Origin: Candidatus Omnitrophota bacterium
GTDB taxonomy: Bacteria > Omnitrophota > Gorgyraeia > Duberdicusellales > 4484-171
Assembly: GCA_041652815.1 (NCBI GenBank)
Contig: JBAZGN010000005.1
Location: 99,651-163,650, forward strand
Direction: 5' to 3'
DNA: 64,000 nucleotides
Within the stretch, counting starts at the first letter, position 1. Each line of letters opens with the position of its first letter. Below the pieces are notes generated by a model that did no database searches, was not told the origin of the DNA, and saw nothing but the letters and a program-made list of their open reading frames with translations. The translations under genes were made by a program, and so were the position numbers. Positions 3,905 through 15,634 of this stretch are shown piece after piece.

Positions 3905-6900
3905 ATGGACAAGGACTATATGCTTCGCGATGATGGAAGTTTTATTATAAAGAATTATAACAGCAAACATCCATTTTCAAATTTTCTTCCCGGCGTAGCC
4001 GGTGCCTGGGGAGTACCGATGTGGGTTTTTTACGTAAACCGGGCACAGGGAGTTATAAGTTTCGGAGTCAAAGATAAAGATCACGCTATAACCGAATTTT
4101 TCCCGGCGAATAATGCTTATTGTTTTGCGCCGCTTGTAGGCTTTCGTACATTCCTCAAGATAAACGATAAAATTAATTATGAGCCATTTCGTGTAATTTC
4201 AGATTATGAACGTAACGAGGAGATGGTTATAAAAAGCTCATCTTTCAGCATACGCAAAAATAATCCGGAACTTGGCCTTAATTTGCGTATTAAATATTTT
4301 ACGCTTCCAAATAGCGCTGCGGGGGCACTGGTACGTGTTTTATCCGTTAAAAATATTTCCGACAAGGAAATAAAGCTTGAGGTTTTAGACGGGTTACCCA
4401 AAATAATACCCTTTGGATTAAACAACGTGTTGCTCAAAGATTTAGCAAGGACTATGGAAGCATGGATGCGCGCTGAAGTTCATAATAACCTGGCATTCTT
4501 CCGTATGATTGTTGACCCCAAAGATTCAAGCCAGACAAAATATATTGATGGCGCTAATTTCGAATACGCTTTTTATGAAGAAAACGGTAAAAAGGTATCA
4601 CCTTATATAATAGTAGACCCTACTGCAATTTTTGCGCAGGATACTTCCTATTCTGTTCCAGTTAATTTTTATGCAAGCAGTTTCAAAACTCCACTTACAC
4701 AAATTATGGCAGGGAAAACCCCGTGCGCTTTTAACCATTTTACATGGAGTATTCTACCGGGAGAGGTTAAAATATTTTACAGTATGTTTGGTTCTTCTTT
4801 TAAATCGCAGCTTATCAAAGATTTTGTTTCGGGAATAGATGCTAACTTTTTAAAAGAAAAAGAAAAAGAAAATAAAAGTATTATTGAAAATATTAAAGAT
4901 AATTGTTTTTCTGTATGTTCTTCAGACAGGCTGAAAGAGTATGTGAAATGTACTTATCTGGATAATGTTTTGCGCGGCGGTTACCCTTATAAATTTACGG
5001 ATAAAAACAGTTACTATATTTTTTCCCGCAAGCATGGTGACCTGGAAAGAGATTATAATAAGTTTAAGTTACTACCTTCCTATTTTAGTGAGGGCGAGGC
5101 AAATTATCGTGATATAAACCAGAACCGCAGGGTAGATTTATTCTTCAATCCGTCCCTTGGAAAATCAAATATAGTGTATTTCCTAAACCTCATAAAGATT
5201 GACGGATATAATCCGCTGGTAGTAAAAGGCGAAAGGCTGTTTTTTAACCAGGCAGCAGCGCGTAATCTATTAAAACAATTCGGTATAGCTGATAAAAAAA
5301 TAATTTCTCTGATGGTTTCAGGCTTTCATCTTGGTGATTTCTTTAAAATCCTTAAAGAAGAAGGTATTGTTGTCAAGGCGCGAGAAAAATTAGCCGCGGA
5401 ATTAGTTACGAAAGCGCAAAGAGAGCCTCAGGCAACTCATGGCGAAGGGTACTGGATAGATCATTGGCGCTATAACCTTGATTTAATCGAAAACTTCCTT
5501 TATTTTTATCCCGATAAATTAGATGACCTGTTTTTAACCAAGGAATATTATTTTTGGGATGATGAGTGGCGCGTTAAGGAACGCAGCCATCGTTTCCATT
5601 TAAAAGATGGTAAGGTTTACCAGTGGCACTCTGTTGAAGAAGTGGGAGAGAAAAAAGATGTTATAGCTTCGCGCGCAAAATTCGCTAATTTTCTGCGTGA
5701 TAAAAAAGGAAATATTTATACTACAAGCCTTATAGAAAAACTTTTAACTCTTATTCTCAATAAAGCTGCGACTTTAGATCCTGATGGTGTAGGCGTTGAA
5801 ATGGAGGCGGATAAACCAGGCTGGTGCGATTCTCTAAATGGCCTTCCTGCTCTTTTTGGCTCTTCAATATGCGAAACTTTTGAATTAAAGCGCGCCTGCC
5901 TTTTGCTGAGTGAAGCAGCATCAGCTTTAAACAAAAAAGGTACAGCTAATTTTAATTTGGCAGAGGAAGTGTATGAATTTTTAGAAGGGCTTGAAGGGCT
6001 GACTAAGAAATACTCTAACCTGCCGGCAAAACAGCGTGATATGTTCTGGTGGGAAAAATCCAATTCCCTGAAGGAAAGTTTCCGGAAAACAACTTTTGCG
6101 CAGATTAAAGGCAAACAGATAAGCATTCCCGGCCTGCGGCTAGAAAAATTCTTAAATTCGCTGGTTAATAAATTGGATAACGGTATCGAAAAAGCTCTGG
6201 ACAGGGATACAGGAATTTATTCTACGTATTTTAAGTATAGCGTAGAAAAATTTCATGCCAAAGGAAAAATAATTAAGCCGCTTAAGTTTAAAAAAGAGCC
6301 TCTCGCGCATTTCTTGGAAGGTTCGGTTCATGCTCTACGCACGCAAAAAGAAAGTTCTATTTATAGTGCGTTAAAGAAAACAGTTATTTTCGATAAAGTA
6401 TTACGGATGTACCGTCTCAACGCGTCTTTAGAAAAAGAACCTCTTGAAATTGGAAGAAGCAGGATTTTTACACCGGGCTGGCTTGAGAATGAATCCATCT
6501 GGCTGCATATGGAATACAAATACCTTTTGGAAGTGCTTAAAAAAGGTTTGTATGAAGAATTCTACGAAGATTTTCATAATTGCGCGGTATGTTTCTTCGA
6601 CGCGCAAAAATACGGAAGAAATATCCTGGAAAACTCTTCTTTTATTGTAAGCAGCGCTAATTGCGATAAAAATTTATGGAACAAAGGTTTTGTCGCGCGC
6701 TTAAGCGGTGCAACTGTTGAGCTCCTGAATATGTGGATTGTAATGTGCCTGGGTAAGTCGCCATTTAATATTAACGGTAATGGCGAACTAACTCTTAAAT
6801 TTTCCCCTATTCTCAAGTCAGAGCTTTTTACCAAGCAGGAGCAGAAAATCGAATTTAGAGGCAAAAGCGAGATTATTGAAAAAGATTGTTTCGCTTTCAA

Positions 6901-7096
6901 GCTATTTTCAAAAACTCTGGTTGTCTACCACAATCCAAACAGAAAAGATACTTTCAGTAAAAGCTGCAGCGTAAATAGAATAGCGGTAACCGATGGTGCC
7001 AAAAAATATGCAATAGAGGGCAGCAACATAAAATCACCATTGAGCCAGAGAGTAAGAGAGGCTATTATTGACCGTATAGACGTTTATTTTAGTTAA
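3905..7096 (+). CDS. Large conserved protein (1063 aa). It may be a divergent glycoside phosphorylase / (alpha/alpha)6 glycosidase (GH94-like).
   Basis: The N-terminal beta-sandwich-like pattern resembles GH94/GH65 N-domains, and the GWCDSLNG block resembles the GH94 DWND..N acid motif. The assignment is weak. Confidence 0.35.
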   Translation: MDKDYMLRDDGSFIIKNYNSKHPFSNFLPGVAGAWGVPMWVFYVNRAQGVISFGVKDKDHAITEFFPANNAYCFAPLVGFRTFLKINDKINYEPFRVISDYERNEEMVIKSSSFSIRKNNPELGLNLRIKYFTLPNSAAGALVRVLSVKNISDKEIKLEVLDGLPKIIPFGLNNVLLKDLARTMEAWMRAEVHNNLAFFRMIVDPKDSSQTKYIDGANFEYAFYEENGKKVSPYIIVDPTAIFAQDTSYSVPVNFYASSFKTPLTQIMAGKTPCAFNHFTWSILPGEVKIFYSMFGSSFKSQLIKDFVSGIDANFLKEKEKENKSIIENIKDNCFSVCSSDRLKEYVKCTYLDNVLRGGYPYKFTDKNSYYIFSRKHGDLERDYNKFKLLPSYFSEGEANYRDINQNRRVDLFFNPSLGKSNIVYFLNLIKIDGYNPLVVKGERLFFNQAAARNLLKQFGIADKKIISLMVSGFHLGDFFKILKEEGIVVKAREKLAAELVTKAQREPQATHGEGYWIDHWRYNLDLIENFLYFYPDKLDDLFLTKEYYFWDDEWRVKERSHRFHLKDGKVYQWHSVEEVGEKKDVIASRAKFANFLRDKKGNIYTTSLIEKLLTLILNKAATLDPDGVGVEMEADKPGWCDSLNGLPALFGSSICETFELKRACLLLSEAASALNKKGTANFNLAEEVYEFLEGLEGLTKKYSNLPAKQRDMFWWEKSNSLKESFRKTTFAQIKGKQISIPGLRLEKFLNSLVNKLDNGIEKALDRDTGIYSTYFKYSVEKFHAKGKIIKPLKFKKEPLAHFLEGSVHALRTQKESSIYSALKKTVIFDKVLRMYRLNASLEKEPLEIGRSRIFTPGWLENESIWLHMEYKYLLEVLKKGLYEEFYEDFHNCAVCFFDAQKYGRNILENSSFIVSSANCDKNLWNKGFVARLSGATVELLNMWIVMCLGKSPFNINGNGELTLKFSPILKSELFTKQEQKIEFRGKSEIIEKDCFAFKLFSKTLVVYHNPNRKDTFSKSCSVNRIAVTDGAKKYAIEGSNIKSPLSQRVREAIIDRIDVYFS

Positions 7097-8893: not shown

Positions 8894-8915
8894 GTTAATT
8901 ACTTAAGTTAATTAA

Positions 8916-8950
8916 CCCCGTTTCGGGTAACCGAAACGGGGTTTTTTATT
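8916..8950 (+). terminator. Rho-independent terminator.
   Basis: CCCCGTTTCGG-GTAA-CCGAAACGGGG stem then TTTTTTATTT. Confidence 0.75.
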
Positions 8951-9117
8951 TATAGTATCGTGTTTGAATCCAACGCTAATAAAACTGTGATGTGTCATTA
9001 ACGGAGTTTACTTTTAATAAAATTTAAGTATAATTACTAAAGGATATAAATTAATAACTTTTATTATCAAGCTCTCAACGGGCACGTTAAGGATAATTCA
9101 ACCATATAGGAGGTTAG

Positions 9118-9447
9118 ATGGAACAAATTCAATTGCCGGAAGAAGAGATTCGTGACGGTGCGCCTTTTGCTGCTTTATCTTATGTTTTTTTCCTGTGGAT
9201 TTTTACTTTCATCTGGAAGAAAGAAAACCGTTTTGCACATTTTCACGCAAAGCAGGGAATTGCTATGTTTGTCGGAGAGATAGGAGTTGGAGTATTGTCG
9301 CTTATGCCTTTTATAGGTGTAGTATTTTACGCAGCCGGGCTTTTACTTTTTCTTTTCCTTTCTCTTTACGGAATTTATTACGCTTTAACCGGCAGAATGA
9401 AACGCATACCTTTTATAAGTAATGTGGCAGACAGGTTTATAGTTTAA
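9118..9447 (+). CDS. Small membrane protein (DUF4870-like).
   Basis: FHAKQ motif between TM helices; GGAGG RBS. Confidence 0.45.
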   Translation: MEQIQLPEEEIRDGAPFAALSYVFFLWIFTFIWKKENRFAHFHAKQGIAMFVGEIGVGVLSLMPFIGVVFYAAGLLLFLFLSLYGIYYALTGRMKRIPFISNVADRFIV

Positions 9448-9653
9448 TGAGCACATCATTTTTTCAAGCCCTGACCGCCCTGACTGCCCGCAAGGGCAGG
9501 CGTGGCAGGCGTGGCGCAGGAAAAATGATAGTGCGAATTAACCCCGAAGCGCTTCGGTTAAATTTCGCAGAAATTTAACCGATATACAGGCGCAAGGGGT
9601 ATGTATAGTAAAACATGGTATAGAATTTCAAATGAAACCTTCTAAATAAAAAA

Positions 9654-9953
9654 ATGAGAAGTTTTATAAGAGTATGGGAAGAAGTTAATATACAGGAAAT
9701 TGAGAAAACTCTTATTGTTATCGGAGAATTATCAGCAGAATGTTTCTCTTGCCATAAAATTGGGATAGATTCAAAATCGCACGTATGCCCAGCCTGCGGC
9801 ACAAATTTTAAATATGTCGGTTTTAGAAGAAGGGTAGAGGGTGGATATTTGCATAGGATAAAAGAAGAAATGCCTTATGCGATTTTTATTGATTTCGATG
9901 ATTTCAAAAAAGCTGTAGGCAAGAAGGAAGCCAGAAAACTATTGGATTTATAA
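9654..9953 (+). CDS. Hypothetical small protein with a Zn-ribbon.
   Basis: CFSCH..CPACG cysteine pairs; no known family recognised. Confidence 0.35.
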   Translation: MRSFIRVWEEVNIQEIEKTLIVIGELSAECFSCHKIGIDSKSHVCPACGTNFKYVGFRRRVEGGYLHRIKEEMPYAIFIDFDDFKKAVGKKEARKLLDL

Positions 9954-10108
9954 TTATAGGTAAATATGGGTGAGGGTAGAAAAACTTTCGGTCCAACAAA
10001 TAAAAAATATTGTGACCTTCACAAGAAATCGTCCCGCTGCAGAAAAGGAAAAAAGAAATAGCCGCTTTCAATTTCATAGTTTTTTAAATAAATCTATCCT
10101 TATTGTTC

Positions 10109-10182
10109 GCCCCGGTGGCTCAATTGGATAGAGCATCTGGCTTCGGACCAGAGGGTTGCAAGTTCAATTCTTGCTCGGGGCG
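10109..10182 (+). tRNA. tRNA-Arg (anticodon TCG).
   Basis: Cloverleaf folded by hand: 7-bp acceptor GCCCCGG/TCGGGGC, anticodon loop CTTCGGA, T-loop TTCAATT. Confidence 0.8.
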
Positions 10183-10218
10183 TTTGAGTTGTTTGGTAGG
10201 TTTACTTGATATTTTATC

Positions 10219-10307
10219 GGAGAGGTGCCGGAGCGGTTTAACGGGTACGCCTGGAGAGCGTAAGTCTGTCGAAAGACGGACCGAGAGTTCAAATCTCTCC
10301 CTCTCCG
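10219..10307 (+). tRNA. tRNA-Ser (anticodon GGA), long variable arm.
   Basis: Acceptor GGAGAGG/CCTCTCC, anticodon loop CTGGAGA, long variable arm, T-loop TTCAAAT. Confidence 0.8.
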
Positions 10308-10580
10308 TTGTCCTACCTATCGCGAGAAAACATCCAACCAGAAATGGGGATGTTTTCTCGCAACATATAGGAAAAGGACAACGGATTCCGGCGAAGCACC
10401 GCCTGAGCCGGAATATCGTTAATAATATTTCGTAAGCGTAAACCATCAAACCGAAGGGGATGGTTTTCCACAACATCTAGGAAAAGGACAACGGATTCCG
10501 GCGAGCCGACCGAGGACGTAATGTCCGAGGGAGTGCCAAGGCCTCCGGATGAGGCTCCGTCCGAGCCAGAATATAACCCT
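10308..10580 (+). repeat. tRNA-Ser-linked structured element, copy 1, with a degenerate internal tandem duplication.
   Basis: 57 nt identical to 14626-14682, including a 15-bp perfect hairpin CGCGAGAAAACATCC..GGATGTTTTCTCGCA. AGGACAACGG pairs back onto the tRNA 3' trailer CCGTTGTCCT. A second conserved ~100 nt domain (GGATTCCGGCGAG...GCCGGAAT) follows. Confidence 0.6.
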
Positions 10581-10882
10581 ATTGTTAACGCTCAAGCGAA
10601 CCCTGTGATTAGCCTTTCTATGGTTCGTTGGCATCTACGACCACCCACCAGTTGTTGTTCAGTATTTGTAAGATTATCGAAAATTTCCTGTACTTTTATA
10701 ACCAGCACAATACCCTTCTCCGGGCACTATGCTTGTAAAACCATTGTAAATATGATAAAATTTCCAATAAATGAATTTAACTTTTCTTAACGTCTGAGAA
10801 TATAGTAAAAGTTCTACAGGGGCGGATTGGCTGGCGGATAATTCATAAACAGCATTAATCAAGATTTACAAGGAGGATTTAG

Positions 10883-12890: not shown

Positions 12891-14060
12891 ATGTTTGCCC
12901 TTAAAGACATAAAAGACAGTTTGGATAAGTTTGTAATTGACCCTTTAATGGTGATAGACCTGCAAAAAAATATTTGCGTGGTTAATGAGGCGTTACGTTA
13001 TTTAGTTGGCTATAAAGAGGGAGAGCTTGTAGGCAAGAAAGCTGACATTATTTTTAGCGATTGCGAAAAATCTATACTCAAAAAAAGCAATGTGGACAAA
13101 TTGATAGGTACAGGTACCATTCTTAATATTGAAACTTATTATCAGACTAAAGACGGAAGGGAAGTTCCCGTACTTTTTAGCAGTTCGGTAATACACGGAC
13201 AGGGTAATAATGATGCATGGATAGTGTGCACCGCAAGAGATATTAGCGAAAGAAAAAAAGTCGAAGAACAATTGCGCACAGCATATGAACAAATTAAAGA
13301 AGCTCAGGACCAGCTTGTTCAAGCTGAAAAATTAAATGCTATAGGGCTACTCGCCAGCGGTGTTGCCCATGAGGTAAAAAATCCTTTGGGAATAATTATC
13401 CAGGGCATAAATTATCTCCAGGCAAAATTTCCTGATAGCGAAATAGATGTGAATAGTACGTTTTGCATGATGATGGAAAGCGCAAGGAAGGCCAATGGCA
13501 TCGTAAATACGCTTCTTGATTTCGCAAAGACAAAGAATTTGGAATTGAAACTTGAGAATATAAACGCCATTCTCGAAAGTGCTTTGCAATTAGTAAAGAC
13601 ACAAATAAAGTTTGAAAATATAAATATAAATATTGACGCAAAGGCCGATCTTCCTCAGATTCTTGTTGATAAAAATAGGCTTGAGCAGGTATTTTTGAAT
13701 TTGATTATGAATGCCATACAAGCTATGCCAAAAGGAGGAAAGATTTTTATTCGTAGTTATGACAAAAATCTGTTTGAGCCAAAGCGTGGTGTTTCCGGAA
13801 GGGAAGATTACTTTAAATATGGAGAGAAAGTTTTGGTAATTGAAATAGAGGATACAGGTGAAGGAATATCGCCCGAAGTTTTTAAAAAATTATTCAGCCC
13901 TTTTTTTACCACGAAAGGTATGCATGGCGGTTCAGGCATAGGTTTGTATATAAGCCGCAACATTATTGATATGCATAAAGGGTTAATTGAAATTGAGAGT
14001 AAAAAGGGCAAAGGCACAAAAGCAACCATTCTTCTACGAATGCCGAAAGAAAAAGCATAG
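12891..14060 (+). CDS. PAS-domain sensor histidine kinase.
   Basis: H-box SGVAHEVKNPL, N-box LIMNAIQA, G-boxes EDTGEGI and GGSGIGL. Confidence 0.8.
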   Translation: MFALKDIKDSLDKFVIDPLMVIDLQKNICVVNEALRYLVGYKEGELVGKKADIIFSDCEKSILKKSNVDKLIGTGTILNIETYYQTKDGREVPVLFSSSVIHGQGNNDAWIVCTARDISERKKVEEQLRTAYEQIKEAQDQLVQAEKLNAIGLLASGVAHEVKNPLGIIIQGINYLQAKFPDSEIDVNSTFCMMMESARKANGIVNTLLDFAKTKNLELKLENINAILESALQLVKTQIKFENININIDAKADLPQILVDKNRLEQVFLNLIMNAIQAMPKGGKIFIRSYDKNLFEPKRGVSGREDYFKYGEKVLVIEIEDTGEGISPEVFKKLFSPFFTTKGMHGGSGIGLYISRNIIDMHKGLIEIESKKGKGTKATILLRMPKEKA

Positions 14061-14455: not shown

Positions 14456-14537
14456 AATATCCGCATGTGGCGGTTTTACCCACCACCAAAAAAGATATTT
14501 AAGAGGACACGCCTCGGGCGGAAAAACCGTTTGTTTT

Positions 14538-14625
14538 GGAGAGGTGGCTGAGCGGTTGAAAGCGCCGGTCTTGAAAACCGGTGTGGGCCTTGTGTCCACC
14601 GTGAGTTCAAATCTCACCCTCTCCG
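14538..14625 (+). tRNA. tRNA-Ser (anticodon TGA), long variable arm.
   Basis: Acceptor GGAGAGG/CCTCTCC, anticodon loop CTTGAAA, T-loop TTCAAAT. Confidence 0.8.
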
Positions 14626-14832
14626 TTGTCCTACCTATCGCGAGAAAACATCCAACCAGAAATGGGGATGTTTTCTCGCAACCTGAGCTCATTAATAAAA
14701 ATATTCAGCGAGGCTTCGCGAAGCGAAGAGGAGGAAAAGGACAACGGATTCCGGCGAGGTAACCGAGGACGTAATGTCCGAGGGAGTGCCAAGGCCTCCG
14801 GACGAGGCTCCGCCCAAGCCGGAATGTAACCC
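14626..14832 (+). repeat. tRNA-Ser-linked structured element, copy 2.
   Basis: Same 57-nt hairpin module and ~100-nt second domain as 10308-10580. Confidence 0.6.
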
Positions 14833-14977
14833 CCGGCTTTATACGCTAAACAATTCAAGCAGTTTTTCTCCGGCACTAGGCATTCCTTTAATCCTTGACT
14901 TTGTCATTCAATTGTGCTATTTTAAATCTATTATTTTACCGGAATTTTTTCGGTTATTTTCTCAAGAGGAGGTAAAT

Positions 14978-15634
14978 ATGAGAAAAAAGTTGTTGTTGTT
15001 TATTCTATTGTTTTGTTTTATTTTTGTTAATGGTTGTGCGGTTATATTTCAGACCGGCAGGCGGTCGGATGCAGAACGTATAAAGACGCTTGAAAAAGAA
15101 CTTGAAGAATTAAGGCATACAAAAGGCCTTCTTGAGCAGACTTTAGAGAAGGAGATAAAAGATAAACAGGTCCGGTTGAGTATGGAGGAAAAAGGGCTTG
15201 TAATTACTTTTGTTTCAGAAGTTCTTTTTGATTCGGGTAAGGCCACCTTAAAGCCTGAAAGTTTTTCAAGCTTGGATAAGGTAGCTAAGATACTTGTAGA
15301 TAATGTCCCGGAAAATAATATAGGTATAGAAGGCTATACCGATAATGAGCCCATAAAGCACTCAAAATGGAAATCAAACTGGGAATTATCGGCTCATCGT
15401 GCATTAAGCGTGCTTGAATATCTGGAAAAAGAAGGTGTTAACTCAGAGAGGCTTTCTGCAAGTGGTTTTGGAGAGTATAAGCCGATCTCATCAAATGATA
15501 CTGCGCAAGGTAGGCAGTTGAATAGAAGAGTAGAAATTGTAATATTACCTAAAACCGTAAAAAAAATGGAAAAGCGAGTTTCGGAGGGTAGCGTCAGTGA
15601 GCCTTCTAGCGAAGGAGAGGAGGAATTGAAATGA
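14978..15634 (+). CDS. OmpA-family lipoprotein (Pal/MotB-like peptidoglycan-binding).
   Basis: Lipobox-like VNGC after a signal peptide; OmpA_C block GYTDNEP...NWELSAHRA...NRRVEI; GAGGAGG RBS. The upstream part of the 14774 ORF is read-through of the repeat. Confidence 0.75.
   Translation: MRKKLLLFILLFCFIFVNGCAVIFQTGRRSDAERIKTLEKELEELRHTKGLLEQTLEKEIKDKQVRLSMEEKGLVITFVSEVLFDSGKATLKPESFSSLDKVAKILVDNVPENNIGIEGYTDNEPIKHSKWKSNWELSAHRALSVLEYLEKEGVNSERLSASGFGEYKPISSNDTAQGRQLNRRVEIVILPKTVKKMEKRVSEGSVSEPSSEGEEELK

Follow-up and report, generated by a model that had tools for sequence, protein, structure and literature searches.

The stretch analysed here (the window) comprises 64,000 nucleotides (nt) of a Candidatus Omnitrophota genome, contig JBAZGN010000005.1, and carries two tRNA-Ser genes, GGA and TGA, each followed by a chain of hairpin modules on the same strand. 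This element starts at the first base after the tRNA discriminator (..CUCCG|UUGUCC, the bar marking the boundary) and occupies two loci in the 64-kb window, referred to as copy 1, behind tRNA-Ser(GGA), and copy 2, behind tRNA-Ser(TGA). We interpret the family as small non-autonomous insertion elements at the tRNA-Ser 3' boundary, restricted to lineages of an Omnitrophota subgroup, with a rough probability of 0.5. Encoded CCA is absent from both tRNA-Ser genes as well as from the neighbouring tRNA-Arg, and the tRNA-Ser ends differ by 1 nt between ARAGORN and Rfam (10218/19-10307/08 and 14537/38-14625/26). The tRNA genes and the modules, designated H1, S, and L, are as follows.

10108-10183, plus strand: tRNA-Arg(TCG).
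10218-10307, plus strand: tRNA-Ser(GGA), ARAGORN; Rfam tRNA, 54.8 bits; discriminator G at 10307.
10308-10384, plus strand: H1 of copy 1, from covariation; covariance model R2, 106 bits.
10308-10314 together with CCG at 10305-10307, plus strand: 5' strand UUGUCCU of the H1 helix of copy 1.
10322-10335 and 10348-10361, plus strand: arms of the H1 hairpin of copy 1; tip CCA-GAAA-UGG at 10338-10347.
10376-10384, plus strand: 3' strand GGACAACGG of the H1 helix of copy 1.
10385-10414, plus strand: S of copy 1, ATTCCGGC-GA-AGCACCGCCT-GA-GCCGGAAT; model R1, 67.8 bits at 10377-10423.
10416-10494, plus strand: degenerate second H1 unit (H1') of copy 1, from the repeat search; model R2, 49.3 bits.
10495-10572, plus strand: L of copy 1; model R3, 78.4 bits at 10498-10548.
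14537-14625, plus strand: tRNA-Ser(TGA), ARAGORN; Rfam, 63.8 bits; discriminator G at 14625.
14626-14837, plus strand: copy 2, whole.
14626-14682, plus strand: first 57 nt of H1 of copy 2; arms 14640-14653 and 14666-14679, tip 14656-14665.
14683-14738, plus strand: insertion inside H1 of copy 2, also present in the L002 orthologue.
14739-14747, plus strand: helix 3' strand GGACAACGG of copy 2, pairing with 14623-14631.
14748-14825, plus strand: L of copy 2, core 14763-14802; model R3, 76.9 bits at 14751-14801.
14818-14837, plus strand: alternative hairpin GCCGG-AATGTAACCC-CCGGC followed by TTTATA, from the minimum free energy fold; weakly terminator-like, missed by the terminator scan.

The 57 nt directly 3' of the discriminator G are 100% identical in the two copies (10308-10364 and 14626-14682), as the original prediction, made from the letters of the window, had stated, and the distal domains (10479-10579 and 14732-14832, 101 nt) share 92% identity. 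The interval 10219-10600 given there holds for copy 1 only, copy 2 lying at 14626-14837. In the 64 kb, the 23-mer AAAAGGACAACGGATTCCGGCGA is confined to the two tRNA-Ser trailers, where it stands three times, and neither this word nor the element motifs of both trailers were reproduced in any shuffle. The fold z-scores of the trailers against shuffled controls are -4.5 and -5.3, and the GC content of the element is 51-53%, compared with 39% for the window. The two tRNA-Ser genes themselves have nine identical nucleotides up to the discriminator and similar T arms.

The element is built as a chain of modules following the pattern A-Bn-C, where A is H1, B is S, and C is L. In H1, the last three tRNA bases and the first trailer bases (CCG-UUGUCC) pair with GGACAACGG to form an outer helix, which encloses a 14-bp hairpin whose tip, CCA-GAAA-UGG, consists of a 3-bp stem and a GNRA tetraloop. 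The back-pairing onto the tRNA trailer proposed earlier is borne out, since AGGACAACGG is the exact reverse complement of CCGTTGTCCT; the perfect stem proposed along with it exists, measuring 14 bp (GCGAGAAAACATCC/GGATGTTTTCTCGC) instead of 15 bp, and its loop has 12 nt instead of 11 and forms the 3-bp stem with the GAAA tetraloop. S is a 30-nt hairpin, AUUCCGGC-GA-AGC-ACC-GC(C)U-GA-GCCGGAAU, with ..CAACGG before it and AUCGUUG after it; it has tandem G.A pairs in its stem and is present in 0-4 copies. L has the opening of S and is lengthened by a 40-nt core that hardly varies, with GCCGGAAU as its usual end; in another lineage the place of L is taken by a different tail. Every unit starts with UUG after ..CG, which is the same junction as that between tRNA and element (..CG|UUG).

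Copy 1 has the order H1-S-H1'-L. Its S folds into an 8-bp stem, tandem G.A pairs, a 3-bp stem, and an ACC triloop, and its H1' (10416-10494), correctly recognised before as a degenerate internal duplicate, contains CGTTAAT, the hairpin AAACCATC/GATGGTTT (10440-10447/10459-10466), and GGACAACGG (10486-10494). The L module of copy 1 begins with an S-type 5' half, ATTCCGGCGAG, followed by the invariant core (10510-10549) and the closing GCCAGAAT (10565-10572). Copy 2 consists of H1 and then L, its H1 carrying a 56-nt insert with two further hairpins, an AT-rich one (CUGAGC...UUCAG) and the mini-hairpin GCTTCGCGAAGC (14713-14724). The stem GGATTCCGGC...GCCGGAAT that had been predicted to close the distal domain is perfect in copy 2 (ATTCCGGC/GCCGGAAT, 14748-14755/14818-14825) and has one mismatch in copy 1 (GCCAGAAT).

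As judged from the alignments, compensatory changes across six Omnitrophota genomes preserve the pairing of H1 and S. In H1 (seven units from five genomes), 91% of the cells are paired and nine pairs are changed on both sides, a covariation score reached by none of 500 shuffles; the variants of the helix are UUGUCC/GGACAA, UUGUCU/AGACAA, and UUGUUUU/AAAACAA, and the tip reads either CCA/UGG or CCC/GGG. The S core hairpin (10 units) is 97% paired, with double changes in 5 of 11 pairs, for example CCGGC/GCCGG, CCGAC/GUCGG, and CUCUGGC/GCCAGAG. No covariation was found in the L modules, because the L sequences are too alike, apart from the closing stem, which covaries in the L129 copy at the GGA locus and is gone in two of five related L modules (L002 and L129, TGA loci). 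Between lineages with only ~72% identity in DnaX, the sequence of the element is conserved beyond the expectation for neutral spacer. Part of the interpretation given at the outset stands, in that a fold is maintained through compensatory changes in the trailer helix, in the big hairpin, and in the small one, ATTCCGGC...GCCGGAAT; the covariation and the further copies asked for there have both been found.

Relatives were sought by scanning species-representative genomes for a 19-mer and metagenomes for a pattern (14-mer-plus), and syntenic loci at graded distance were collected through orthologues of the OmpA-like protein and DnaX. Among the scan matches listed, L002, L072, L103, and L124 are genuine and the rest are mostly chance matches in high-GC genomes; candidate L118 was dismissed after examination. 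L002 is an Omnitrophota metagenome-assembled genome syntenic with the window, L072 is identical to the window, and L103 has the element behind tRNA-Ser(GCT), upstream of dnaX. All seven tRNA-linked copies start exactly after the discriminator and have the orientation of the tRNA; the isoacceptors carrying them are GGA and TGA (window, L129), TGA (L002), and GCT (L103, L140). Run over 311-389 kb of Omnitrophota DNA, the covariance models R2 (H1), R1 (S), and R3 (L) gave matches in tRNA flanks only. The module orders outside the window are as follows.

L129, GGA locus: H1, four S-type units, L.
L129, TGA locus: H1-S-L.
L002: H1-S-S-H1'-insert-L.
L103: H1-S-S.
L140: H1-S-S-S-tail.

Site occupancy and module number therefore vary between close relatives. 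The GGA locus is occupied in the window and L129 and empty in L130 and L145; the TGA locus is occupied in the window, L002, and L129 and empty or replaced in L130, L131, L133, and L145-147; the GCT locus is occupied in L103 and L140 and empty in L139 and L141/L142. DnaX of L139 is 91% identical to DnaX of the element-bearing L103. The single conserved domain of ~200 nt originally envisaged thus gives way to a variable chain with 0-4 S and an optional L, present in some and absent in other close relatives. Within a genome the copies are homogenised: the window has CAUCC/GGAUG in both copies and L129 has CAUCU/AGAUG in both, so the copies were exchanged or re-inserted after the species split. 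At L103 (3030-3104), a leader of ~75 nt with two hairpins lies upstream of tRNA-Ser(GCT); it is homologous to the tRNA-Ser(TGA) leader of L002, L129, and L130, and lacks such homology to the GCT leader found in its closest relatives, and flanks have therefore been exchanged between tRNA-Ser genes.

The comparison of L140 with its close relative L139 provides a filled and an empty allele. In L140, 1,006 bp (8895-9900) are inserted between the tRNA-Ser(GCT) end ..CCCCTCCG and the flank TTCTTCTTCGCCC, and in L139 the flank TTCTACTTCGCCC directly adjoins the same tRNA end ..CCCCTCCG. The insertion contains, in order, H1 (TTGTTTTGCC..), three S, the tail, an open reading frame (ORF) of 161 codons, and a conserved right end of ~110 nt. 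Its terminus is ..ACTACCCG, with the right-end segment finishing ..CCACGACTACCCG, and therefore both junctions read CCG|TT. The full unit of ~1 kb thus has a hairpin array on the left, a small cargo ORF, and a ~110-nt right end finishing ..ACUACCCG (..CCACGAYTACCCG). In L124, the right end is directly joined to a left end (ACTACCCG|TTGTCC), the junction expected of tandem or circular copies, and the right-end family occurs again behind tRNA-Ser(GGA) in L130, where it follows an unrelated ORF. Between the cargo ORFs of L140 and L130 there is no relationship, and neither matches a Pfam family. According to the best-supported reading, the window copies are cargo-less derivatives. Insertion at tRNA-Ser, the last alternative listed in the original prediction, is consequently the best fit, given the precise 1,006-bp difference between L140 and L139. 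The form of it in which the region is an attL/attR scar fails on one defining feature, as no significant tRNA-end repeat bounds the window copies. A retroelement resembling short interspersed elements finds no support, as the tRNA bodies differ and only the flank is common.

Other segments behind tRNA genes of these genomes end in repeats of the tRNA end. In L145 (9543-9884), two tandem 171-bp units lie behind tRNA-Ser(TGA), and a single unit is found in L146 (9359-9530) and L147; at the end of each unit stand 17-19 nt copied from the tRNA-Ser(TGA) 3' end. The species of L145-L147 has an OmpA-like protein 85% identical to that of the window, and six other assemblies of this species break in the region (contig ends among L148-L154). 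In L141/L142, a segment of ~215 bp behind tRNA-Asn holds two L-like units, with 17 nt of the tRNA-Asn end repeated at its boundary. The 3' end of tRNA-Ser is a hotspot for insertions in these relatives. End repeats and tandem units at tRNA genes are classical marks of site-specific integration and tandem accretion, a concept for tRNA 3' ends taken from Guedon et al. 2017 (PMC5704250). Integrase scars, including that of L145 at this very site, have a direct repeat of the tRNA end, which the window copies do not.

Several further observations concern these regions. In L131, a tRNA-Ser(TGA) 3' half (~9645-9700), nearly identical to that of the window, lies ~130 nt past a different, intact tRNA-Ser(TGA) (9457-9545) and looks like a replacement or integration scar. 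In L142 (9832-10400, identical in L141 at 13060-13460), an 81-residue GIY-YIG ORF overlaps the start of tRNA-Asn(GTT), which is followed by a terminator, an inverted T-arm fragment, the two L-like units, and the 17-nt tRNA-Asn-end repeat. An 88-residue GIY-YIG ORF also lies just upstream of the element-bearing tRNA-Ser(GCT) of L140 (8475-8741); it is missing from that position in the empty-site L139, which has one elsewhere. A tyrosine integrase gene of L141 (2127-3306) ends 25 nt before tRNA-Lys(CTT) and is unlinked to the modules; contig L142, from an identical strain, starts at this integrase/tRNA-Lys point, which suggests the boundary of a variable island. The tRNA-Ser(GCT) gene of L139-L142 belongs to a conserved cluster (for example L142, 1530-9316), in which it stands between archease, DUF4139, RtcB RNA ligase, seryl-tRNA synthetase, and ORF195 on one side and dnaX and recR on the other.

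Our reading of the family as small insertion elements at the tRNA-Ser 3' boundary builds on the observed anatomy, covariation, polymorphism, filled and empty alleles, and junctions. Site-specific recombination at a short core, (C/T)CCG|TT, would insert and remove the unit. All tRNA-Ser isoacceptors share this core because they have a common acceptor end (..CUCCG, then TT), and the specificity for three serine anticodons is most simply explained at the DNA level. The recombinase would act in trans and is probably a tyrosine integrase like those targeting tRNA 3' ends, and arrays may grow when units accrete in tandem or are duplicated at the repeated CG|TTG junctions. Once inserted, the element would be read through from the tRNA promoter and co-transcribed with the tRNA; its hairpins would form in the 3' trailer of the precursor and be removed at tRNA 3' maturation, and the trailer starting with U, together with the self-contained fold, would keep the tRNA functional. 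A benefit for the host, such as a structural block at the 3' end or insulation against the gene downstream, would be optional, as relatives lack the element. Comparison with relatives suggests a small piece of mobile DNA without genes in preference to a new functional RNA, and the element matches no family in the libraries searched.

A number of points weigh against this reading. The filled and empty pair comes from the tRNA-Ser(GCT) of another lineage, and the right boundary is undefined at the window loci. To the right of the window copies, the best match to the tRNA-Ser 3' end does not exceed what random segments give (p 0.38 and 0.17), and the core common to the junctions is only ~5 nt, being CCG|TT alone in L140. 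No recombinase or transposase linked to any copy was found in the fetched loci or the window; in particular, no integrase or transposase was found among the window genes (10 window ORFs scanned), which for the integrase confirms what had been said of the window before. Selection on an RNA fold, of which a passive DNA scar would have no need, seems to show in the compensatory changes, in the GNRA tetraloop, and in the tandem G.A pairs, and the invariant L core suggests selection on fold or sequence. The family sample is also small, with at least ~10 independent copies from ~6 genomes.

Selection of this kind would be expected of a host-functional structured RNA, a tRNA-Ser trailer freed by RNase Z-type cleavage after G73 and acting as a stable small RNA or in cis on the maturation, termination, or stability of tRNA-Ser. 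Strong compensatory variation (nine H1 pairs, 5 of 11 S core pairs), the covarying 3-bp stem with its GNRA cap, the fold z-scores of -4.5 and -5.3, a GC content 12-14 points above that of the genome, and conservation exceeding that of neutral spacer between lineages with ~72% identical DnaX all speak for it, as does the uniform orientation of every copy with the tRNA, whose own CCG is used in the helix. The patchy distribution would then reflect lineage-specific gain and loss. Yet the element is missing at orthologous tRNA genes (L139 against L103/L140; L130 and L145 against the window) and behaves as part of a 1-kb indel; module number and order vary, so that there is no fixed RNA, the closing stem of L is gone in two of five copies, and the downstream genes vary by locus, leaving no common cis target. 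We therefore regard a host RNA as unlikely. Quite improbable is a combined version, in which the hairpin array would serve the mobile element itself as a functional RNA, with the tRNA-Ser promoter driving its transcription and tRNA 3' processing freeing it, and would be needed for the element's site choice or maintenance. Folded H1, with GGACAACGG pairing across the junction of tRNA end and element, could then be the recognition signal of the recombinase; if true, insertion at tRNA-Ser ends would be directed by structure or by RNA, in a dedicated system without a described precedent.

The hairpins could also be signals in single-stranded DNA, moved by a hairpin-recognising HUH/Y1 enzyme in the style of IS200/IS605 or REP-RAYT, with the element as a non-autonomous palindrome-associated derivative inserted 3' of a short ..CCG target in one orientation and without target duplication. 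Hairpins kept by covariation are expected if the fold is the recognition signal, and the insertion exactly 3' of a fixed short sequence, the lack of terminal inverted repeats and of target duplication, the unlike but structured left and right ends, and the hairpin-adjacent ..CGG complementary to the target CCG agree with such a process. We nevertheless consider it very unlikely, as no Y1/TnpA, TnpB, or RAYT gene was found among the annotated genes of the fetched loci or in the window, the copies are confined to tRNA flanks although a 3-4-nt target would permit many sites, and other elements at the same site have direct repeats of the integrase type. The need for dedicated mobility would disappear if a spacer repeat had been born once behind a single tRNA-Ser gene, grown by strand slippage or tandem duplication, and spread between tRNA-Ser loci by homologous recombination or gene conversion, for which the almost identical tRNA-Ser 3' halves would be the anchor. 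Homogenisation within genomes, the nine shared nucleotides and similar T arms of tRNA-Ser(GGA) and (TGA), the flank exchange seen in the TGA-type leader of tRNA-Ser(GCT) in L103, and the CG|TTG microhomology at unit boundaries point this way. However, conversion needs homology on both sides and the downstream flanks are unrelated; the cargo ORF of the 1,006-bp unit and the recurring right end, joined to a left end in L124, are hard to obtain by it, and so are L-like units behind tRNA-Asn within an att-bounded segment. We thus see little likelihood in this explanation, and small insertion elements at the tRNA-Ser boundary remain the reading that we prefer.

Known families and other element classes were also considered. 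Among Rfam 15 families only tRNAs pass the threshold in the window, and even at E<=10 no match touches the element; in the relatives, likewise, neither curated nor permissive thresholds gave a match to it. Hence no Rfam terminator or leader family, as inquired about in the original prediction, accounts for the element. Resemblances by eye to the hammerhead, signal recognition particle RNA, and the K-turn were not borne out. A conserved RNA of fixed position is contradicted by its absence from the orthologous tRNA-Ser in L130, L131, L133, L139, L141/142, and L145-147. The terminator scan lists no intrinsic terminator inside either copy, H1 being followed by AACAUAUAGG and no U tract. Integron attC sites (RYYYAAC 5', GTTRRRY 3') have the wrong polarity, the element having GTTGTCC...GGACAAC, and GTTGTCC does not fit GTTRRRY. 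The differences between the two L copies are not adenine-specific, which speaks against the template and variable repeats of a diversity-generating retroelement; a repeat array like type III antitoxins has no toxin gene next to it, the downstream genes varying by locus; and scans of viral contigs for a phage or provirus origin gave nothing or coding coincidences only. Neither Y1/HUH transposase, TnpA, RAYT, nor TnpB was found among the annotated genes of the fetched loci or the 10 scanned window ORFs, and the counts of G.U versus A.C pairs do not indicate the strand of action.

A coding function was rejected as well. The 40-nt L core (10510-10549, 14763-14802) contains GAGGA-N4-AUG followed by a proline-rich 13-codon start, MSEGVPRPPDEAP, and the ORFs beginning in this way agree over these first 13 codons (the L core) only and have no credible Pfam match. 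They had been called spurious before, which is upheld by conservation over no more than 13 codons and the lack of a Pfam family. The antisense ORFs match no family, and their conservation is confined to the L core. In the window, an AUG within L opens an ORF (14774-15634) running in frame into the OmpA/MotB-like gene, whose true start is at 14978, behind GAGGAGG; in L129 (5483-5812), a 109-residue 'gene' is called wholly inside the element. Both are likely annotation artefacts.

The genes around the two copies are ordinary, syntenic housekeeping genes, among them those for a porin, a GGDEF-HD protein, TadA, a PAS kinase, a response regulator, and the OmpA/MotB-like protein, as well as uppS, cdsA, and dxr. 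The OmpA-like protein has a counterpart of 100% identity in a Candidatus Omnitrophota metagenome-assembled genome at NCBI. Upstream of the porin gene lies a 1063-residue ORF (3905-7096) that L129, L130, and L145 have conserved in this position; its counterparts in L129 and L145 have no Pfam hit on record. Three further features lie to the right of the modules.

10622-10646, plus strand: candidate relic of the right-end family (GGTTCGTTGGCATCTACGACCACCC), from the MAFFT alignment; weak and uncertain, not significant by BLAST.
10716-10729, plus strand: motif TTCTCCGGGCACTA, common to copy 2, at the right edge of the variable region (comparison with L129) and immediately ahead of the GGDEF-HD gene's conserved promoter region.
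14866-14878, plus strand: motif TTCTCCGGCACTA, common to copy 1, close to the right-hand end of the variable region.

If the preferred reading is true, an Omnitrophota subgroup has private miniature mobile elements whose landing pad is the acceptor end of serine tRNAs and which ride in the tRNA transcript. In practice, such elements break assemblies, seed false gene calls (the 109-residue 'gene' of L129, the in-frame N-terminal extension of the window's OmpA/MotB-like gene), and can pass for new regulatory RNAs. They join features that are usually apart, a strict tRNA-end specificity and a BOX-like chain of covarying hairpins, without the usual att repeats, and the enzyme that moves them could reveal an unusual recombination mechanism.

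In its architecture, the element resembles the pneumococcal BOX elements, boxA-boxB(n)-boxC, which occupy more than 100 dispersed intergenic sites and have no transposase of their own (Croucher et al. 2011, PMC3049150). Both have an A-Bn-C organisation with a variable middle module and stem-loops in all modules, extend the transcript of the upstream gene at its 3' end (co-transcription of our element being predicted), give rise to spuriously annotated ORFs, and lack a transposase. Unlike BOX, the element is found only in tRNA 3' flanks with a fixed start base, shows no sequence similarity to it, and belongs to a different phylum; membership in BOX fails because BOX is dispersed and the element's copies are confined to tRNA flanks. 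In its position, the element resembles CIMEs, decayed integrative elements that keep attL and attR as direct repeats of the tRNA end (PMC5704250). Common to both are the tRNA 3' end, the absence of integration genes, variable occupancy, tandem structures, and a site that holds other elements. The window copies differ in having no significant repeat and a junction core of ~5 nt, and CIMEs are usually kilobases of decayed genes, in contrast to arrays of covarying hairpins; since no tRNA-end direct repeat bounds the window copies, the element cannot be assigned to the CIME/integrase class.

The mosaic of palindromic units, extragenic and at the 3' ends of transcription units, is also known from the enterobacterial REP/BIME sequences, the hairpins of which can stabilise or attenuate transcripts. 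These occur in hundreds of dispersed copies with a conserved GTAG-type head and a linked RAYT gene, and neither the dispersal, the head, nor the RAYT link is seen for the element. Palindromic elements derived from IS200/IS605 share with it asymmetric structured ends, the lack of inverted terminal repeats and of target duplication, and a place of insertion directly 3' of a sequence that is short and fixed; no TnpA/TnpB relative was found for the element, whose target use is far narrower than a tetranucleotide. Finally, tRNA 3'-trailer RNAs, such as 3'ETS-leuZ of E. coli and the plant tRNA-snoRNA dicistrons, are fixed conserved sequences with a defined target. Like them, the element lies directly behind a tRNA and is predicted to be released by tRNA 3' processing; unlike them, it is modular, variable in copy number, and dispensable.

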